This document shows positions 2,221 to 64,000 of a stretch of 64,000 nt of DNA, one piece after another. The notes under the pieces were generated by a model that had not been told where the DNA came from, ran no database searches, and saw only the letters and a program-made list of their open reading frames with translations. The stretch is taken from positions 2,790,001 to 2,854,000 of the forward strand of contig JAQOWU010000008.1 of NCBI GenBank assembly GCA_030867685.1. The letters are read 5' to 3'. This DNA comes from Wickerhamiella versatilis. Taxonomy: Eukaryota. How positions within the stretch are numbered: position 1 is the stretch's first letter; each line of letters opens with the position of its first letter. Position numbers and translations under genes: made by a program.

Positions 2221-3250
2221 ATGTATTAGAGTTCAACAGAAGAATAGATTTAGCAACTTCACCACGATGCTATTTGCTAGACCCTGCTCGTTAAAGTCTA
2301 AATTCAACAGAGCCTGGTACAAAAACTTTGATGGTTGAGCAAGCCGTACACACCAGCTAAAGCTTCTTCTGCAAAAAATAAGGACAGCAAAAGCAAAGGG
2401 AGGTACACTGCTGTTTCTGTGTCCTTAACAACTACCGGCTACCTTCCGGTGGTGTATGTGTGGGTGGTTGGCAGGTAAGGGGTTCTGCGCGTGGGACGTA
2501 GCGAGTTAATGAATTTTAGGGCACGGGTATTACGCGACACGGTCAGTGGTGCTAAAGTTGTATTATACGCGTACAAATTGAATAATTATGCTTTGATGTT
2601 CAATGGATCTTCTTTCTGTACTTCTCACCGTGCTTCAGCGCATATTCTTCAGTTTGTTGTGATCTACTGCTTTCTTCGACGCGTGTCTCAGACTTACACG
2701 TGACACCACATTGGCACCCAAACAAGGATTTTTTGACTATCTCAAATGATTAAATTAAATTATTAAAGTTAGTTGGTATCAGTGGTCCTCTGAGAGTTAG
2801 TCTCTAAACCTTCACCCTCGCGCGTGCAGCCCCTGTCTAGCAATTACTCTCCAGGAGACATAATTGATTTATTGTTGGTCATCCTCTGGTATGCTAGCCC
2901 AAAAGTCGACTCCTATGACTAGCAGCTTTCATTAAAACCTAAATCAGCGACTGAAAACTCAAGTTAAACTAGGTTCTACGAAGTTAAGAAACACCAAGGG
3001 GTGCAGGTCCAAAAATTCCTTGACGGCCTTGCGGTCGCCAAGCGTGGTCATAAATAAATTTTCAACTAGCAAAAACACAATCTCGGACGGATCCTCACTG
3101 ATATGTGTAATGCCCGTGCATAAGGATAAAAGAAGAAGAATATTGTGTTATGTCAGCATATATACCATTCGCTGTGGCCAGAGGCAACTGTCAAAATGGC
3201 TTGATATGTACATATTAATAGGGTATCCTGCATATTTCTCTTAGATAGGC

Positions 3251-13260: not shown

Positions 13261-13998
13261 TCACTCTTGAACTTGCAAGAAAAATTCTTATTACTTAATA
13301 TATGTATTTCCATAACTCCGATAAATACGTATCGGTGGGCACCTTCCAATCAGTTTGTAGAAATTAATTCTAGAAAAAGACAAATAATCTCTCAGGATGA
13401 GTACTTTGATTTTTCCCAGGATATGTTCATCATCTAAAATCAACGCATTGAATATATATATATAAACCATACCTTGATATTCGTCTAAATTGTCGCATTG
13501 TTAATGACTTTCCGTGACTTTTAAAATCAAAAAAAAGATGAGGAAATATCTGGGAAGAAAAAAAAACTACAGCACCTGCCGTTCTCACGTGGTCTCCCAC
13601 CGTAATACTGAATCAGGCTCTCAGCAGCTTATGTATGGCTGATCGGACGGGAAGCCCAGTTACCTGCTGGATATGGCCGTAGCTGTTAATTGTAGTTTTG
13701 CTATCCAATATATAGTGGATTTTTCTTTATGTATTGGTATGATTCTTTTATTACACTAAGTATCATAATTGCAAGATCAATTATTTATTTCCCTACTAGT
13801 TTTGTCCATGTCATAAAACATTATTATTCAAAATAACGGTTTCAATATGACAGGTGTTAAGTTGAAATTATTTGTTGTCATATACTGCATTTCGACGCTT
13901 TGTCTCGCAAAATAAATACTCTGCCTGCCGTTATATACGAGAATACATAAAACATTCTCGCAGACACAAGTTTGACAGCCAGTTTGTCATCACCCCAG

Positions 13999-50812: not shown

Positions 50813-52111
50813 ATGAGAACTGTCGCAGCGGTTTTCGGGGCGTGTGCTACTGCCTCGCTGGCATCGATATTAGCGACCCTGTGGTTTGTTCAACCCCCAA
50901 AAAAAGATGTTAAAAGGAAAAACTCATCTGAGTGGCCTCAAGAGATAGTTGACGAGCAACAAGCACGAAGTAGAGCTTTTCTCAGGGATGAGGGAATGGA
51001 CAAACTTCGGCGCTCCACAGTCGTAATAGTTGGTGCAGGTGGGGTGGGGTCTTGGGTTGCAACTATGCTTGTACGTACCGGTGTTGGGAAGGTTAGGATT
51101 ATTGACTTTGATCAAGTGACACTAAGTTCCTTGAACCGTCATGCCACGGCCACCCTGGCTGATGTAGGGACCCCAAAAGTTAATTGTGTGGCTAAATTTC
51201 TCACAGCTGTAGCGCCTTGGGTGACCATAGAGCCAATAATTTCTTTGTGGACGAAAGATCACGCCCATCTTCTCGATGGTGCCGACTACGTTGTTGACTG
51301 CATAGATAACATTGAGACGAAGGTGGACTTACTGGCACACTGCTACCATAATAAAATACCAGTTATTGCATCTATGGGAGCGGGCTGTAAAGGGGATCCC
51401 ACACGGGTGGACATCCGGGATATCTCCCAAACTATTGAGGACCCATTATCTCGGGTGACGCGCGTAAAATTGCGTTTCAAAGGAATCAGTACCGGGATCC
51501 CTGTGGTATTTAGTAGCGAAAAGCCTGGGCCAGATAAGGCTAAGCTCTTGGATATTGCTGATAAAGAGCTGGAAAAAGGTGAAGTGGGTGAGTTATCGGT
51601 CCTTCAAGACTTCAGGGTGCGTATTTTACCGGTTTTGGGACCTATGCCAGCACTATTTGGTCTTACAATCGCCACACATCTATTGACCTGGCTCGGCGGC
51701 TATCATAGTGTGTATGATCCAGTTCAAGGTGGCTATCCCTTGGTCCCCAAGAATCGTCATAAGCTACATGACTCTCTATTTCACAGTCTTATCGGCCAAT
51801 TTGCACGACTCAAGACCCCAGAGGCAAGAAAAACGACCCTCAGCGTCGAAGACGCTGCATACATATTGGATGAGGTCTGGCGGGGAAAAACGATTACTGG
51901 CCAGTGCAATCATATCAGGCTGACCTTATGGGACCCCGCGGGACCACGAGATGTTACAAATATTATACCCATGAATTCGGAACAGGCCACACGACATGAA
52001 CAGTTAGTGCTCAAGGAAGGAAAGGCCCTATCTGACGTGTGGCCGCAGGAAGTATTGGAGACCGTGGCAAAACGCCAAGAACTTAATCAATGGTACCTTA
52101 ATTTTCGCTAG
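50813..52111 (+). CDS. TCD2: tRNA threonylcarbamoyladenosine dehydratase (ThiF/E1-like, ct6A), Tcd1/Tcd2 family
   Basis: N-terminal TM, VGAGGVGSW, IDFDQVTLSSLNRHA, DCIDN, DPLSR, VVFSSEKP, FRVRILPVLG; TCD1 vs TCD2 not resolvable. Confidence 0.88.
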   Translation: MRTVAAVFGACATASLASILATLWFVQPPKKDVKRKNSSEWPQEIVDEQQARSRAFLRDEGMDKLRRSTVVIVGAGGVGSWVATMLVRTGVGKVRIIDFDQVTLSSLNRHATATLADVGTPKVNCVAKFLTAVAPWVTIEPIISLWTKDHAHLLDGADYVVDCIDNIETKVDLLAHCYHNKIPVIASMGAGCKGDPTRVDIRDISQTIEDPLSRVTRVKLRFKGISTGIPVVFSSEKPGPDKAKLLDIADKELEKGEVGELSVLQDFRVRILPVLGPMPALFGLTIATHLLTWLGGYHSVYDPVQGGYPLVPKNRHKLHDSLFHSLIGQFARLKTPEARKTTLSVEDAAYILDEVWRGKTITGQCNHIRLTLWDPAGPRDVTNIIPMNSEQATRHEQLVLKEGKALSDVWPQEVLETVAKRQELNQWYLNFR

Positions 52112-52154: not shown

Positions 52155-53102
52155 TTAAATTCGACATATGGTCTTCATCCGTTCGTACACCAGGAACGAG
52201 CACGCAAACATCGGTGCGATTTTCATATAACCTATTGATAAACCGACAAAAAATGCTCTGATTCCACCCTCTGCATATATTGCCTTGACTGTATTCATGA
52301 GGGTTAATTTGCTTTTGGTAATTCCCGCCACTTGCATTCTTCTCCGCACAACTTCAAGTGGATAGGCAGACGTTTGAGCCAGGACGCCGCTGAGGCCACC
52401 AGCAATAAGCTGCGCCCAGTTGTGCAATGGTTTTTTTCCGGTGATACGAGAGGTTCGTGCCTGCCAATTAACCGCATAGCTGTGCAGCCACTCATTTCTA
52501 AAAATATCATGTAGAATATCATGCGCAAGGAAAGAAACTCCAGCGTAGGGTATTACCCCCAGAAGGGTGGGAAAAAATCCTGAATACAAGTTCAAGATCT
52601 TTTTCGATCCGCCGTCCTCTTCCAAAATTGCCCTCACAGTGTGGAACAACCGGTGCTCCTGAAATTCGTTCCCGCGATAAGCTATCTGGACCCGTATTAC
52701 ATCCAGCGGGTAGGTAAACAATACCGAGCACAGACCTGCAAGTGATCCGGTCAAAAAGCGTCGGACGTGTGTTTCATGATCATTGGAGGAAATGATAACG
52801 CCTCTGATTTGCTCATATGCCACAAACTTGACAGCGGCATAGGGAAACACCCGTAAGAGAGTTGCACTGTGACCTCTTAGCAGCCCAAATACACCCTCTG
52901 TCCGCGTTATATAGCGAATAGACCGGGGGAGTCCCAACAGGGTACCTGCCCACTGCTGAAACTCAGGATTTTTTGTCTGGAACAAGATCTTTACTCGATC
53001 AAGTGGTGCTATTAGTGTCTTAGCAGCACAGCCTGCTACACCTCCTGATATTGCAGAACGAAATACATAGTCTAGATTCTGCCGATCAGTCGGTGGAGGC
53101 AT
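52155..53102 (-). CDS. LEU5: Mitochondrial coenzyme A carrier
   Basis: Three carrier repeats (APLDRVKILFQT, YPLDVIRV, YPLEVVRRRMQ); GHSATLLRVFPYAAVKF and GLSIGYMK typical of Leu5. Confidence 0.88.
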   Translation of the reverse strand: MPPPTDRQNLDYVFRSAISGGVAGCAAKTLIAPLDRVKILFQTKNPEFQQWAGTLLGLPRSIRYITRTEGVFGLLRGHSATLLRVFPYAAVKFVAYEQIRGVIISSNDHETHVRRFLTGSLAGLCSVLFTYPLDVIRVQIAYRGNEFQEHRLFHTVRAILEEDGGSKKILNLYSGFFPTLLGVIPYAGVSFLAHDILHDIFRNEWLHSYAVNWQARTSRITGKKPLHNWAQLIAGGLSGVLAQTSAYPLEVVRRRMQVAGITKSKLTLMNTVKAIYAEGGIRAFFVGLSIGYMKIAPMFACSFLVYERMKTICRI

Positions 53103-60678: not shown

Positions 60679-61965
60679 ATGGGGGAAAAATCTGGCATAA
60701 TTTTGAAACTTCTGCCTCATTCTGCGGATAATGAATCTGTCGAGGTATCTGATGAGCCTATCGATGTGGAGCACATTCCTGATGGTGGATGGCAGGCTTG
60801 TCTTGTAGCATTTGGATCATTTACTGCTATTGTGGCGACCTTTGGTGTATCTGCAGCGGTTGGTACGATTCAGCAGTATGTTGCTTCTCATCAGCTTTCT
60901 GATTACTCGACTTCTTCAGTCGGTTGGATATTTAGTGTCCAGCTTTTTCTTTTCTACTTTGTAGGAATCCAAGTGGGTCCAATATTTGACACTTATGGGC
61001 TTCCTCCCCTCCTTTTTCCTGGCTGCATTTGCTGGTGCCTTGCTATTATGTTTTTGAGCGAGAGTCATGAGTATTACCAGTTTATGTTAAGTTACGGTAT
61101 ATTTGGAGGTCTTGCTTCTTCCACGATATTCAATCCTTCTGTCACAGTGATATCGCACTGGTTTTTGCGTCGTCGTAGCCGGGCAATAAGTTTTGCTGCA
61201 TCTGGATCGGCAATTGGGGGGCTCTTTATGCCGAAAATGGTGTCTAGATTAATCCCTCAAGTGGGATACGCGTGGGCTGTCAGGATTCTGGGTTTCATTG
61301 TGCTATTTCTTCTGCTAATCACTTGCCTTTTAATGCGCTCGCGTCATCGTAGAAGAACTCATATTGACTGGCGCGAGTCGATGATAGACATAAGCGCACT
61401 CAAGGAGAAAGAGTTTGTGGCATGTGTAATAGGTCTATTTTTCGTTGAATGGGGAATTTTCATTCCTCAGATTTATATTCCTACTTACGCAGTAAGCCAA
61501 AATTGGAGTCCAGACAATTATTTACTGATGTACATGAACGCTTCAAGCTTTGTTAGTAGACTGCTTGTAGGGTGGCTTGCCGACAAATTCGGCACCTTCA
61601 ACCTCATGATATTCAATGCTCTTGGTGCTGGAATAGTCTGCTTTGCTCTCTGGCTGCCAGCGGGACCCCATCACAATGGATTGATAGCCTTTGTGGTGGT
61701 TTTCGGTTGGTTTTCAGGGGCTGTCATTGCTATGACATTAACGGTAATTCCTGCACTCGCGCAGCCCAAAAATGCTGGGCGACGCTATGGAACTGCTTAT
61801 ATGATTGCCAGTTTTGCCGTTCTCACAGGGTCTCCCATTGCAGGGGCTCTAACGGACCATAACTATTTGGGATTAATCCTATTTACAGGGTGCGTTTACA
61901 TTGCGGGCTCTTTATGCTTCGCTATCTCAAGGTGGTGGGCTGCTCCAAATCGGTGGGTATATTAA
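60679..61965 (+). CDS. MFS transporter, monocarboxylate-porter (MCH4/MCH5-like) family; candidate thiamine or thiamine-precursor transporter
   Basis: PDGGWQA motif, GWIFS, GPIFDTYG, ISHWFLRRR, GWLADKFG, LTGSPIAGAL; about 12 hydrophobic segments; TPP aptamers in its 3' UTR. Confidence 0.9.
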   Translation: MGEKSGIILKLLPHSADNESVEVSDEPIDVEHIPDGGWQACLVAFGSFTAIVATFGVSAAVGTIQQYVASHQLSDYSTSSVGWIFSVQLFLFYFVGIQVGPIFDTYGLPPLLFPGCICWCLAIMFLSESHEYYQFMLSYGIFGGLASSTIFNPSVTVISHWFLRRRSRAISFAASGSAIGGLFMPKMVSRLIPQVGYAWAVRILGFIVLFLLLITCLLMRSRHRRRTHIDWRESMIDISALKEKEFVACVIGLFFVEWGIFIPQIYIPTYAVSQNWSPDNYLLMYMNASSFVSRLLVGWLADKFGTFNLMIFNALGAGIVCFALWLPAGPHHNGLIAFVVVFGWFSGAVIAMTLTVIPALAQPKNAGRRYGTAYMIASFAVLTGSPIAGALTDHNYLGLILFTGCVYIAGSLCFAISRWWAAPNRWVY

Positions 61966-61969
61966 ACAA

Positions 61970-61985
61970 TACTAACTTACAACAG
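61970..61985 (+). promoter_or_regulatory. Spliceosomal branch point and 3' splice acceptor just after the MFS stop codon
   Basis: Perfect TACTAAC (61970-61976) followed by ttacaaCAG (AG at 61984-61985). Confidence 0.6.
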
Positions 61986-61997
61986 GTAAAAAAGAAT

Positions 61998-62083
61998 TGC
62001 CGCGGCGGGTGCCCCTTTGTTACTGGGCTGAGATTACACCGTTTGCACTCGATCAAGTTCGTACTTGCGAGAGGATTGTGGCA
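61998..62083 (+). promoter_or_regulatory. TPP riboswitch aptamer 1
   Basis: P1 ugccgcg/uguggca, P2 gcgg/ccgu, P3 gccc/gggc, invariant CUGAGA, P4-P5 CUC-GAU-CAAG-UUCGUA-CUUG-CG-A-GAG matching the TPP consensus. Confidence 0.92.
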
Positions 62084-62102
62084 CTATAGATCTTGTTTAA
62101 GA

Positions 62103-62183
62103 AGTCGCGACGGGTGCCTTTTTAAAGGCTGAGATCAAACCGTTAACACTCGATCAAGTTCGTACTTGCGTGAGAATGTGACT
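62103..62183 (+). promoter_or_regulatory. TPP riboswitch aptamer 2 (tandem copy)
   Basis: P1 agucgcg/ugugacu, P2 acgg/ccgu, P3 gccuu/aaggc, CUGAGA, same P4-P5 core; compensatory changes relative to aptamer 1. Confidence 0.92.
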
Positions 62184-62272
62184 CTATAAATCTTTTTTAT
62201 CAAATATGGCTCTTTTAGGAAATTTAGCCAGTCATTTGGAGCTTAAATTAGTCTATGTAGATGCTCCAGATG

Positions 62273-64000
62273 CTACTGCTGCCTTTCTCTAAATTTATAG
62301 GAGTCTCCGGTTATGTCCCAATAAATACATCTGCAGACATGGGCAATGGCAGCTCTCCCTTGCCAGACTGGAACAACGCCTACGAGAAATAGAGCACACC
62401 ATATCCATAAAATCTGAATGACAACCCACCCTGTGAAGAATGGCCGACTAAACACATAGCCACTGCCATACAATGGCATGGGGAATATGATGAGTAGCGA
62501 AAGAACCAGAATGGCACATATAACACGTGCAGCTACCACATATACATTTAAACGAGTCTTTTTATCAGCCCATTTATAGGATATTGATGAAGTGTTCTCT
62601 GTGATAACCTTTTCGTTATCCTTTTCAGGCGCTGTGCTGCTCGAAATTTCAGATATGTCAGAACTTTCAGCAATATGAAATTCTCGTAGTTGATCGAAGT
62701 TGTAATGAGCATGTCCAGTAAATACTTGGATTATGGGGATCCAAACTAATGGACTAAAGGTGCTAATGAGCATAGAGCCTAGACCAGCGTAGCTGGATCC
62801 CGTGGTAGCAACGGTAACAGCACCGTGTAAGCCATAAGCTATAGTAACCAGTGCAACGACGCCTGAAATACTACCCAGTATTGCAGAGATAATTGCAGAC
62901 CACTTTGTGAGACCACTCCAGAATAAGGTCAAAACTGCAGGAACAAATGCTCCGCCTGCAACTACTGCAATCAAATCGAAGAGCCAGCTTAAATTGACTC
63001 CAGCATAGTAAAGGCCAAGAGCAAATCCAACCATGGTAGACACAAATACGACAACACCTGCATGTGTCATGAAAATGAGCTGCTTTCCACTCGCGCGAGG
63101 GTTAATGTAAGGTTTGTACACATCATATACAAATACTGTACTCGCTGCTACCATCTCTGCAGAAGCAGCACTTGTAACTGACATCAGTACTAAAAGTAAG
63201 GCACAAGCTGCACCCCTTTCACCCATTAAAAGGGTTGCGGCTTTTGGAAGTACCAGGCCTGCGCTTACTTCTTCAGCGGACATTGGCTCGGATTCGAGAA
63301 CTCTAGCACTGAGACCCAGCACAGTTGCAAGTCCAAATGGACAACCGTACCATGCAATTCCACCCATTATATATCCTGGTATAACTGAAGAGGGAGCCGA
63401 AGCTAAGGATTTTTGCCAATAGCCCTGATCAAGACATATTGGTGTGATCGCACTCGACAATGCAAGAGCGAGAAACAATCCTCCTCCATGTGAGCTGATT
63501 GTCAGATAGGAGCCATTCTTGTTACCTTCAATGGGCTTAGTCTTCGCCAGTTCGACGAGAAGATCATACATACGACCAGGCGACCCGATTTGCGAATTCG
63601 TCGTATATGCATTGAATAAAAACACCAGAGCAATAGTCAAAATAACTATTGTATGGAGATAGTCTGTCAAAAAAGTCGATTTGAGTCCCCCGAAAAGAGT
63701 GTAGCAGGTAACGGGCAATATTATGAGGAAAGTAGCTGCAACAATATGCATACCAGTAAGATAATTTACGACAACTGATGCACCATTTAGTAGCTCTACA
63801 GTGACAAGCATATTTACAGCGATGGCAAAAAAAAGGAAAACTAGATGAGCAGACTTTCCAAATCTCACACGTATTAATTCCAGATAGGTGTGACACCCCG
63901 GTGCTTTTCGCTTTACCTCCATAGCCAGAACAGCAAATATGAAACATACCACGCCACATCCGCTGGCATAATACAGACCACCCGCAACTCCATAATTATA
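62273..64000 (-). CDS. DUR3: Urea/polyamine sodium:solute symporter, Dur3 family (5' end lies outside the window)
   Basis: Frame stays open to the window edge (YNYGVAGGLYYASG); KRKAP..HTYLE, YTLFGGLKSTFLTDYLHT, GNKNGSYLT, DQGYWQK, AGLVLP, VYDVYKPYINP, FFTGWV. Confidence 0.88.
   Translation of the reverse strand, partial: YNYGVAGGLYYASGCGVVCFIFAVLAMEVKRKAPGCHTYLELIRVRFGKSAHLVFLFFAIAVNMLVTVELLNGASVVVNYLTGMHIVAATFLIILPVTCYTLFGGLKSTFLTDYLHTIVILTIALVFLFNAYTTNSQIGSPGRMYDLLVELAKTKPIEGNKNGSYLTISSHGGGLFLALALSSAITPICLDQGYWQKSLASAPSSVIPGYIMGGIAWYGCPFGLATVLGLSARVLESEPMSAEEVSAGLVLPKAATLLMGERGAACALLLVLMSVTSAASAEMVAASTVFVYDVYKPYINPRASGKQLIFMTHAGVVVFVSTMVGFALGLYYAGVNLSWLFDLIAVVAGGAFVPAVLTLFWSGLTKWSAIISAILGSISGVVALVTIAYGLHGAVTVATTGSSYAGLGSMLISTFSPLVWIPIIQVFTGHAHYNFDQLREFHIAESSDISEISSSTAPEKDNEKVITENTSSISYKWADKKTRLNVYVVAARVICAILVLSLLIIFPMPLYGSGYVFSRPFFTGWVVIQILWIWCALFLVGVVPVWQGRAAIAHVCRCIYWDITGDSYKFRERQQ

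Follow-up and report, generated by a model that had tools for sequence, protein, structure and literature searches.

Why should a yeast transporter gene carry two riboswitch aptamers behind its stop codon, and what could they do there? The question is raised by a locus of Wickerhamiella versatilis that lies in a stretch of 64,000 nucleotides (assembly GCA_030867685.1, contig JAQOWU010000008.1, positions 2,790,001 to 2,854,000 of the forward strand; hereafter the window, whose first letter is position 1). Two aptamers of the thiamine pyrophosphate (TPP) riboswitch family follow one another on the plus strand, just downstream of a gene for an MFS transporter. An earlier note, made from the letters of the window alone, had described them as a tandem pair in the 3′ untranslated region (UTR) of that gene. 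The analysis presented here finds two intact aptamers, placed behind a complete reading frame and under RNA depth that continues from the transporter gene, and it favours, tentatively, a mode of action that does not involve splicing.

The whole window was scanned against Rfam at the gathering threshold, which is 54.3 bits for the TPP family (RF00059). Four matches were returned, and two of them are TPP aptamers. Both are on the plus strand, as the earlier note had expected of such a search; they score 59.0 and 65.6 bits, and both cover the full model (1–105). The limits given in the note, 61998 and 62183, mark where the P1 helices of the pair end on the outside. The start-to-start spacing of 101–105 nt agrees with the distance of about 100 nt given in the note, and the stretch of 24 nucleotides said to be identical in the two copies was recovered and lies in the P4/P5 arm. 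The hallmarks of the family are likewise present in each unit: the CUGAGA motif on the pyrimidine side and the GCG of the GAUC...GCG arm on the pyrophosphate side are kept in both aptamers, and these are the motifs to which ligand contacts are assigned (PMC9544697). The optional P3a was not found in either aptamer in the match to the RF00059 model. By sequence, the pair is made up of two intact aptamers of the TPP family, arranged in tandem behind the stop codon in the probable 3′ UTR of a transporter mRNA, and both are predicted to bind TPP. The coordinates of these and of the other elements of the locus are given in Table 1.

The two copies differ at 21 of the 86 aptamer columns, 10 of which are paired and 11 unpaired. 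When the Rfam structure was placed on the two-row alignment of aptamers 1 and 2, standard pairs filled 48 of the 50 cells formed by 25 modelled pairs in two copies; the two non-standard cells, a C.U in P3 and a G.A in P4, are both in aptamer 1. In the constrained folds of both aptamers, all constrained pairs are standard. The 10 differences in paired columns all leave pairing intact. At three pairs, of which two belong to P1 and the third to P3, both partners have changed, and the further changes in paired columns turn, from copy 1 to copy 2, a C.U into U-A, a G-U into A-U and a G.A into G-U. In slid controls the pairing drops to 27–48%. The covariation score was reached by 56 of 500 shuffles, a control that is weak with only two rows. 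Neutral decay is hard to reconcile with these observations, because all 10 stem differences keep or improve pairing and both CUGAGA and GCG are kept. The claim of the earlier note that compensatory differences in P1 and P3 reflect selection on structure is thus upheld; judged from the alignment, both copies are kept by selection and the differences between them preserve the structure.

The protein encoded upstream of the pair matches Pfam MFS_1 (E 9.5e-38). Its best named relative is 'MFS.3 Starmerella bombicola', with 49% identity; other names among the relatives found in the protein search are monocarboxylate permease, MCH4 and MCH5, and the Atlas neighbours belong to MCH2/MCH5-type clusters. 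The closest named homologues suggest a budding yeast in or close to the Starmerella/Wickerhamiella lineage. The C-terminus aligns to the last residue in all of the 20 proteins compared (the MFS protein and 19 relatives). Because all 20 end in the same last columns, the frame is complete, and therefore the aptamers are truly behind the stop codon on the same strand, where the earlier note had placed them, and not intronic within the coding sequence. Aptamer 1 starts 33 nt on from the stop codon, with 32 nt between the two. The transporter is a candidate carrier of thiamine or of a thiamine precursor.

To follow transcription across the pair, raw reads from four RNA runs of two studies with the same species label (X9, X10, X12 and X13) were placed on positions 61000–62800. 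Depths are sums over both read orientations. The two orientations are about equally frequent over the MFS coding sequence, so the libraries behave as unstranded; the coding depth is about 8–21 across the four runs. In the order X9, X10, X12 and X13, the depth is 21.2, 19.6, 9.8 and 10.0 over 61854–61914 and 17.8, 13.5, 6.5 and 8.6 over 61915–61975. Over 62098–62158 it is 9.9, 4.4, 4.8 and 6.5, over 62159–62219 it is 5.0, 5.3, 3.5 and 14.9, over 62220–62280 it is 1.8, 6.2, 2.4 and 8.3, and over 62281–62341 it is 2.0, 5.7, 0.8 and 0.6; X10 still has 2.5 over 62342–62402. In all four runs the depth therefore passes from the coding sequence (8.6–21.2) through the 5′ half of aptamer 2 (4.4–9.9) into the tail, and fades by about 62280–62400. 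The convergent gene on the other side of the tail, which is DUR31-like (see below), is almost silent in all four runs, with a depth of about 0–2.5 from 62342 on and of at most about 1.5 over its coding sequence at 62403–62800.

Because the depth continues and the convergent gene is nearly silent, the RNA that covers aptamer 2 and the tail forms a continuation of the MFS coding sequence, not of the neighbouring gene. The MFS 3′ UTR is roughly 300–400 nt long and ends near 62280–62400. The MFS transcripts do not always end before 61998, and depth runs on past aptamer 2. Two complete aptamers lie under continuous depth, single spanning reads or molecules not being among the data; as the libraries look unstranded and yielded no poly(A) ends, the membership of the aptamers in the MFS mRNA rests on this continuity together with the silent neighbour. 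Of the earlier expectation that RNA-seq would place both aptamers in the MFS mRNA, continuity of depth to about 62280 stood, while strand and 3′ ends stayed unassigned. No splice junction with at least three reads was seen within 61000–62800 in the four runs, at a depth of only about 10–20, and neither clustering of the places where reads start or end nor loose ends made of poly(A) is listed for the locus in these runs.

The same reads show that the pair has a counterpart elsewhere. Reads that are 90–95% alike to the window made up 189 of the 374, 136 of the 246, 87 of the 186 and 239 of the 379 reads placed in the four runs. They pile on the conserved core 62026–62081, where their summed depth reaches about 146–170, and their flanks are unlike the window; on either side, left and right, the flanks are of two kinds. 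After 62081, the loose end of 30 letters ends with the same nine letters that open the loose end before 62026, and a joint that goes back 56, from 62081 to 62026, is found in nine reads of X9, five of X10, one of X13 and none of X12. Taken together, the foreign flanks, the overlapping loose ends and the back-joint reads reveal that a second tandem pair of TPP aptamers lies outside the window, its cores repeating at about 107 nt and its expression several times that of the MFS gene. The paralogous reads also lend independent support to selection on structure: 62057 G>A and 62064 C>T occur jointly in them, which changes a P5 pair from G-C to A-U; in X9 the counts of the two changes match, with 74 of 97 and 74 of 99 in one orientation and 83 of 101 and 83 of 101 in the other. 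Since this second tandem locus is present, tandem TPP aptamers are a recurring design, found in at least two places of one yeast genome.

The MFS gene and its convergent neighbour are separated by 308 nt between their stop codons, most of which is aptamer, and the AU-rich tail extends over the neighbour's stop codon and into its 3′ flank. The DUR31-like identity of this neighbour, a sodium:solute symporter (SSF), had not been noticed in the earlier note. Its protein is 51% identical to 'Dur31.2 S. bombicola', compared with 45% to 'Dur3 S. bombicola'; DUR31 is described as a riboswitch-controlled thiamin transporter of Candida (PMC5997356). In a sister species, an 84% identical MFS protein and a 79% identical SSF protein share a longest contig of 74256 bases. 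Because both proteins report the same longest contig, the linkage of the two genes is probably conserved there. A 653-residue protein that is 97% identical to the SSF fragment suggests about 78 further N-terminal residues past the edge of the window, and a riboswitch belonging to the SSF gene itself, if there is one, would likewise be located past that edge.

The characterised fungal TPP riboswitches are all described as regulating splicing (PMC5997356, PMC3597705, PMC8216456). Those in fungal introns hide or uncover alternative 5′ splice sites, or else rely on a distal element that pairs with the P1 3′ strand (PMC5997356, PMC3597705); in plant and green-algal switches, the acceptor AG lies in P2 (PMC9544697). 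Each of these designs was looked for at the present locus. The best duplex between the aptamers and the region of the splice-like signals and stop codon is no better than chance, being equalled in 467 of 500 shuffles, and the 3′ strands of the two P1 helices have no complementarity to the upstream 600 nt beyond chance (379 and 164 of 500 shuffles equal). Splice-site masking and P1 alpha/alpha′ pairing were set aside, with nothing beyond chance. An AG acceptor was not found in the 5′ strands of P2, which read GCGGGU and ACGGGU. Scans for donor, branch point and acceptor yielded candidate introns of 96 nt (with a weak donor) and 494 nt on the plus strand and of 456 nt on the minus strand, none of them with read support.

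The DNA at 61970–61985, which on the plus strand holds a TACTAAC branch-point box, reads as a GTAAGT 5′ splice-site match on the minus strand. With a perfect GTAAGT (61980), a perfect TACTAAC (61558) and a CAG at 61525, the minus strand outlines a unit of 456 nt that resembles an intron and runs antisense to the 3′ end of the MFS gene. No junction reads were found for this unit (61525–61980) in the four runs.

Since the searches for splice masking, P1 pairing and an AG acceptor were negative and no junctions were seen, an action independent of splicing is favoured. From the presence of the aptamers in the UTR onward, we infer, with somewhat less than even confidence, that the pair controls 3′-end formation or the stability of the mRNA. 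The pair would act in cis on the MFS mRNA, without splicing. Upon binding, TPP would lock the aptamers in their P1-closed folds, causing the flanking AU-rich segments to change partners. The linker segment 62084–62104, which would otherwise pair with the 5′ half of aptamer 2, would be freed for new partners, and the tail (62184–62272) could fold onto the stop-codon region or, alternatively, back on itself. This re-pairing may alter the site and the efficiency of 3′-end formation at the terminator shared with the DUR31-like gene, and a changed 3′ end would change the length and stability of the mRNA. With two sensors in series, the response would depend on both being occupied.

The segments named in this scheme were compared with the predicted folds. 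In the free ensemble, the native P1 of aptamer 1 has a probability of 0.93, while the native fold of aptamer 2 has a probability of about 0.11 without ligand. In the minimum free energy (MFE) structure, positions 62089–62104 of the linker region pair with 62118–62136 in an interrupted hairpin of 19 bp, which takes the P3 and CUGAGA segment of aptamer 2; because of this predicted capture, aptamer 2 would not be natively folded alone. Only aptamer 2 has such a predicted competitor fold, which is equalled in 60 of 500 shuffles. An 11-bp A/T clamp around both aptamers is present in the MFE structure and in all constrained folds. Both aptamers are also enclosed by a predicted long-range helix between the stop-codon region and the tail, at −25.8 kcal/mol, where shuffled sequences average −14.9 (sd 3.1) and one of 500 does as well. 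A word in the last MFS codons (61941–61950) has its complement in the tail (62233–62242), with a near-copy of the word at 62263–62272, about 20 nt on. This trio allows either a long-range or a local helix. As modelled, the choice between the long-range helix and the local hairpin would have the shape of an alternative-pairing platform, and it would be located where the RNA depth ends.

Several points weigh against control of the 3′ end by the pair. The duplex of linker and aptamer 2 (−11.4 kcal/mol) is not significant, being matched by 60 of 500 shuffles; the A/T clamp is of low complexity and not convincing, with 13 of 500 shuffles as good; the long-range helix is one of six duplex tests and is weak for that reason; and the fold of the entire UTR does not exceed those of shuffled sequences in stability (z 0.04). 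The read libraries look unstranded and list no poly(A)-tailed reads, so that strand and exact 3′ ends are not fixed, and the bins at 61976–62097 are swamped by paralogous-aptamer reads, so that continuity over aptamer 1 is not directly readable. A perfect TACTAAC with its CAG stands just upstream of aptamer 1, and characterised eukaryotic TPP riboswitches are not known to act other than through splicing. The comparison across species covers distant paralogues only: a metagenome scan with the 20-protein MFS alignment gave 10 loci with relatives of 28–42% identity, and RF00059 was found at none of the 10, which, as these are distant paralogues, is mute on conservation. Finally, TPP aptamers in diatom 3′ UTRs are reported to show no thiamine response (PMC9544697).

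The branch-point box would fit a role in splicing, in an unusual layout. The aptamers would govern the branch point and acceptor at 61970–61985 in combination with a weak donor, GTGCGT at 61890, and hence a 96-nt intron (61890–61985), which a pattern scan does pick out. Removal of this intron would join GG to G, followed by TAA, giving a protein 24 residues shorter that ends inside the last membrane helix, and TPP would toggle between a full-length and a crippled transporter. Counting both strands, the 64-kb window has just three copies of TACTAAC; one of these few precedes aptamer 1 by 22 nt and is followed by CAG at a distance of 6 nt, and a second copy is 412 nt away on the other strand; the fungal precedents, as noted above, are all ones of splicing (PMC5997356, PMC3597705, PMC8216456). 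However, the four runs, at a depth of about 10–20, show neither a junction of at least three reads nor a loose end at 61986, the donor fits poorly, and the complementarity between aptamers and splice signals is at chance (467 of 500 shuffles). In addition, the aptamers would be outside the intron, downstream of the acceptor, a layout for which no precedent is known. Such control of the acceptor appears unlikely to us, and the toggle between two forms of the protein equally so. The convergent arrangement points in another direction. The tandem aptamers might set the shared terminator of two convergent candidate thiamine transporters; when they are occupied, the MFS end would change or antisense transcription would run on into the DUR31-like gene, and both genes would be co-regulated. 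This we consider improbable, as we do the more specific version in which folding with TPP would decide between a stop at the shared terminator and an antisense run-on repressing the DUR31-like gene, so that one pair would serve two transporter genes. Consistent with it are the short, largely aptameric gap of 308 nt between the stops, the resemblance of the neighbour to the riboswitch-controlled thiamin transporter of Candida (PMC5997356), the linkage probably conserved in the sister species, as judged from the same 74256-base longest contig, and a few reads that extend to about 62585 in X9 and X10. On the other hand, depth past 62342 is only about 0–2.5, with the strand unassigned, and the antisense effect is a prediction from the gene arrangement and a handful of reads; according to PMC5997356, DUR31 is not the neighbour of the riboswitches at monocarboxylate-porter-like (MCP) genes in S. 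bombicola and C. apicola, and the adjacency seen here may be a local accident.

It is also conceivable that the aptamers are real and do not regulate the MFS gene at all, either because a copy of the other tandem pair landed there or because they are aptamers without a switch, as in diatoms. A second, more highly expressed pair with the same unit spacing of about 105 nt does exist elsewhere in the genome, the 3′ UTR aptamers of diatoms are conserved yet unresponsive (PMC9544697), and no expression platform is significant here, one helix out of six tests excepted. Against this stand the 21 of 86 differing columns, in which all 10 stem differences keep or improve pairing while CUGAGA and GCG are kept, and the presence of TPP riboswitches at the same transporter family in two other yeasts (PMC5997356); on balance, inert aptamers seem rather unlikely. 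Still less is to be said for a separate small non-coding transcript that starts in or just after the MFS 3′ end, similar to the Brettanomyces riboswitch transcripts of poor coding potential. Orphan riboswitch transcripts of this kind have been described (PMC5997356), and in X13 the depth over 62159–62280 (8.3–14.9) exceeds that of the coding sequence (8.6–10.0). There is, however, no dip at the stop codon, where the depth over 61915–61975 is 6.5–17.8 in the four runs, no clustered read starts are listed, and, with only 32 nt between the stop and aptamer 1, there is no room for an intergenic promoter. A transcript of its own is quite improbable.

Control of the MFS 3′ end without splicing, the reading preferred above, can be set beside the systems already described. 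Closest are the TPP riboswitches at MCP-family genes (MFS transporters) of Starmerella bombicola and Candida apicola, which form a sixth riboswitch-bearing group (PMC5997356): the same aptamer family is found beside the same transporter family, again in budding yeasts. For these cases the main text of that paper gives neither the position nor the number of the aptamers, and the terms 'tandem' and 'two riboswitches' do not occur in it; they differ from the present pair in their neighbourhood, which here includes a DUR31-like gene. The switches of N. crassa NMT1/THI5, THI4 and NCU01977 and of Candida DUR31 have the same aptamer and thiamine-related cargo (PMC5997356, PMC3597705), and the long-distance pairing of the P1 3′ strand in NCU01977 offers a lead for the long-range helix (PMC3597705). 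As these sources describe them, the fungal switches are single, lie in introns near the 5′ end and act on alternative 5′ splice sites, whereas here two aptamers follow the stop codon, no junction reads were seen, and neither P1 nor P4/P5 complements splice-like sites better than expected by chance.

A 3′ UTR location is shared with plant THIC (PMC8216456, PMC9544697). The presumed outcome there is that the 3′ end and the stability of the transcript are switched, with a single aptamer and the acceptor AG in P2 (PMC9544697). Plant THIC reportedly splices a 3′ UTR intron (Wachter et al. 2007), in contrast with the W. versatilis pair, in which the P2 strands are without AG and no splicing was seen; for TPP-dependent splicing of a 3′ UTR intron, by which the plant switch takes out the processing signal, no junction was found in the four runs, at a depth of only about 10–20 and with thiamine status not known. 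The diatom aptamers resemble the present ones in being conserved, behind the stop codon and without a splice acceptor, and differ in being single; a polyadenylation signal by their P1 has led to a hypothesis of alternative polyadenylation (PMC9544697). Two TPP aptamers occur in the 5′ UTR intron of Saprolegnia NMT1, and 3′ UTR aptamers occur in Postia placenta (PMC5882874). In the Saprolegnia pair, as here, aptamers for the same ligand stand in series and the copies appear to be related by duplication. Bacillus anthracis reportedly also has tandem TPP riboswitches, each with its own terminator, to which the same likeness applies. The Saprolegnia and B. anthracis pairs are upstream of the coding sequence, while the W. 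versatilis pair is downstream of it and, as far as modelling goes, without evident separate expression platforms.

A tandem or post-stop TPP pair in a yeast was not found in literature searches, which left many subscription papers outside their reach, and the available text of a study of 156 fungi (PMC11683625) does not contain the word 'tandem'; the cases it describes are located in introns or in 5′ UTRs. The novelty claimed in the earlier note is accordingly narrowed: the tandem, post-stop layout in a yeast was not found described, while the link to the MCP family, the Saprolegnia pair and the 3′ UTR aptamers of Postia are already in print (PMC5997356, PMC5882874). Known, then, are the family of aptamers and its association with transporters of this family; the doubled, apparently intron-free layout behind the stop codon and its recurrence at a second locus appear to be new. 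The pair supports a view of the MCP-type MFS family as thiamine-related transporters. Eukaryotic riboswitches of known mechanism redirect splicing; the pair would be a tractable site at which to study whether such a switch can control 3′-end formation, stability or read-through instead, and it would show what two sensors in series add. If the aptamers are inert as in diatoms, yeast would be a second lineage that keeps TPP aptamers in a 3′ UTR.

Table 1. Features of the locus, in window coordinates; base changes are given from copy 1 to copy 2.
Feature	Position	Strand	Details
TPP aptamer 1	61998..62083	+	P1 = 61998-62004 / 62077-62083; RF00059 match 61995-62093, E 5.1e-9
TPP aptamer 2	62103..62183	+	P1 = 62103-62109 / 62177-62183; RF00059 match 62100-62193, E 1.2e-10
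Linker between aptamers	62084..62102	+	AU-rich; predicted pairing of 62089-62104 with 62118-62136
Both-sided change	61998/62083		U-A to A-U
Both-sided change	62000/62081		C-G to U-A
Both-sided change	62014/62025		C-G to U-A
MCH/MCP-type MFS transporter gene	60679..61965	+	428 aa, complete; stop TAA 61963-61965
TACTAAC branch-point box, CAG 6 nt after	61970..61985	+	between stop codon and aptamer 1
Long-range helix, 5′ arm (predicted)	61934..61964	+	around the stop codon; pairs with 62220-62257; inverted repeat I1
Long-range helix, 3′ arm (predicted)	62220..62257	+	core 62233-62242 alternatively pairs locally with 62263-62272
A-rich clamp arm (predicted)	61985..61995	+	11 bp with T-run 62191-62201, enclosing both aptamers; pair probability 0.99
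AU-rich tail, putative 3′-end formation region	62184..62300	+	fading depth; TATAAA, T-run, hairpin 62233-62242 / 62263-62272
DUR31-like sodium:solute symporter (SSF) gene	62273..64000	-	stop 62273-62275; Pfam SSF; 5′ end beyond window

Elsewhere in the window, the ten reading frames upstream of the locus include no thiamine biosynthesis gene. A thiamine gene neighbourhood was considered and set aside: a ThiF-family match at 50813–52111 (+), which lies 9–11 kb upstream together with a mitochondrial carrier, is a protein with an E1-like domain, and the carrier (52155–53102, −) has only generic names in the Atlas, so that neither is evidently thiamine-related. The remaining Rfam matches are far from the aptamers: a U4 snRNA gene (94.9 bits) is at 2992–3127 on the minus strand, and a stand-alone 5S rRNA gene (77.6 bits), which other rRNA genes do not adjoin, is at 13564–13684 on the same strand.

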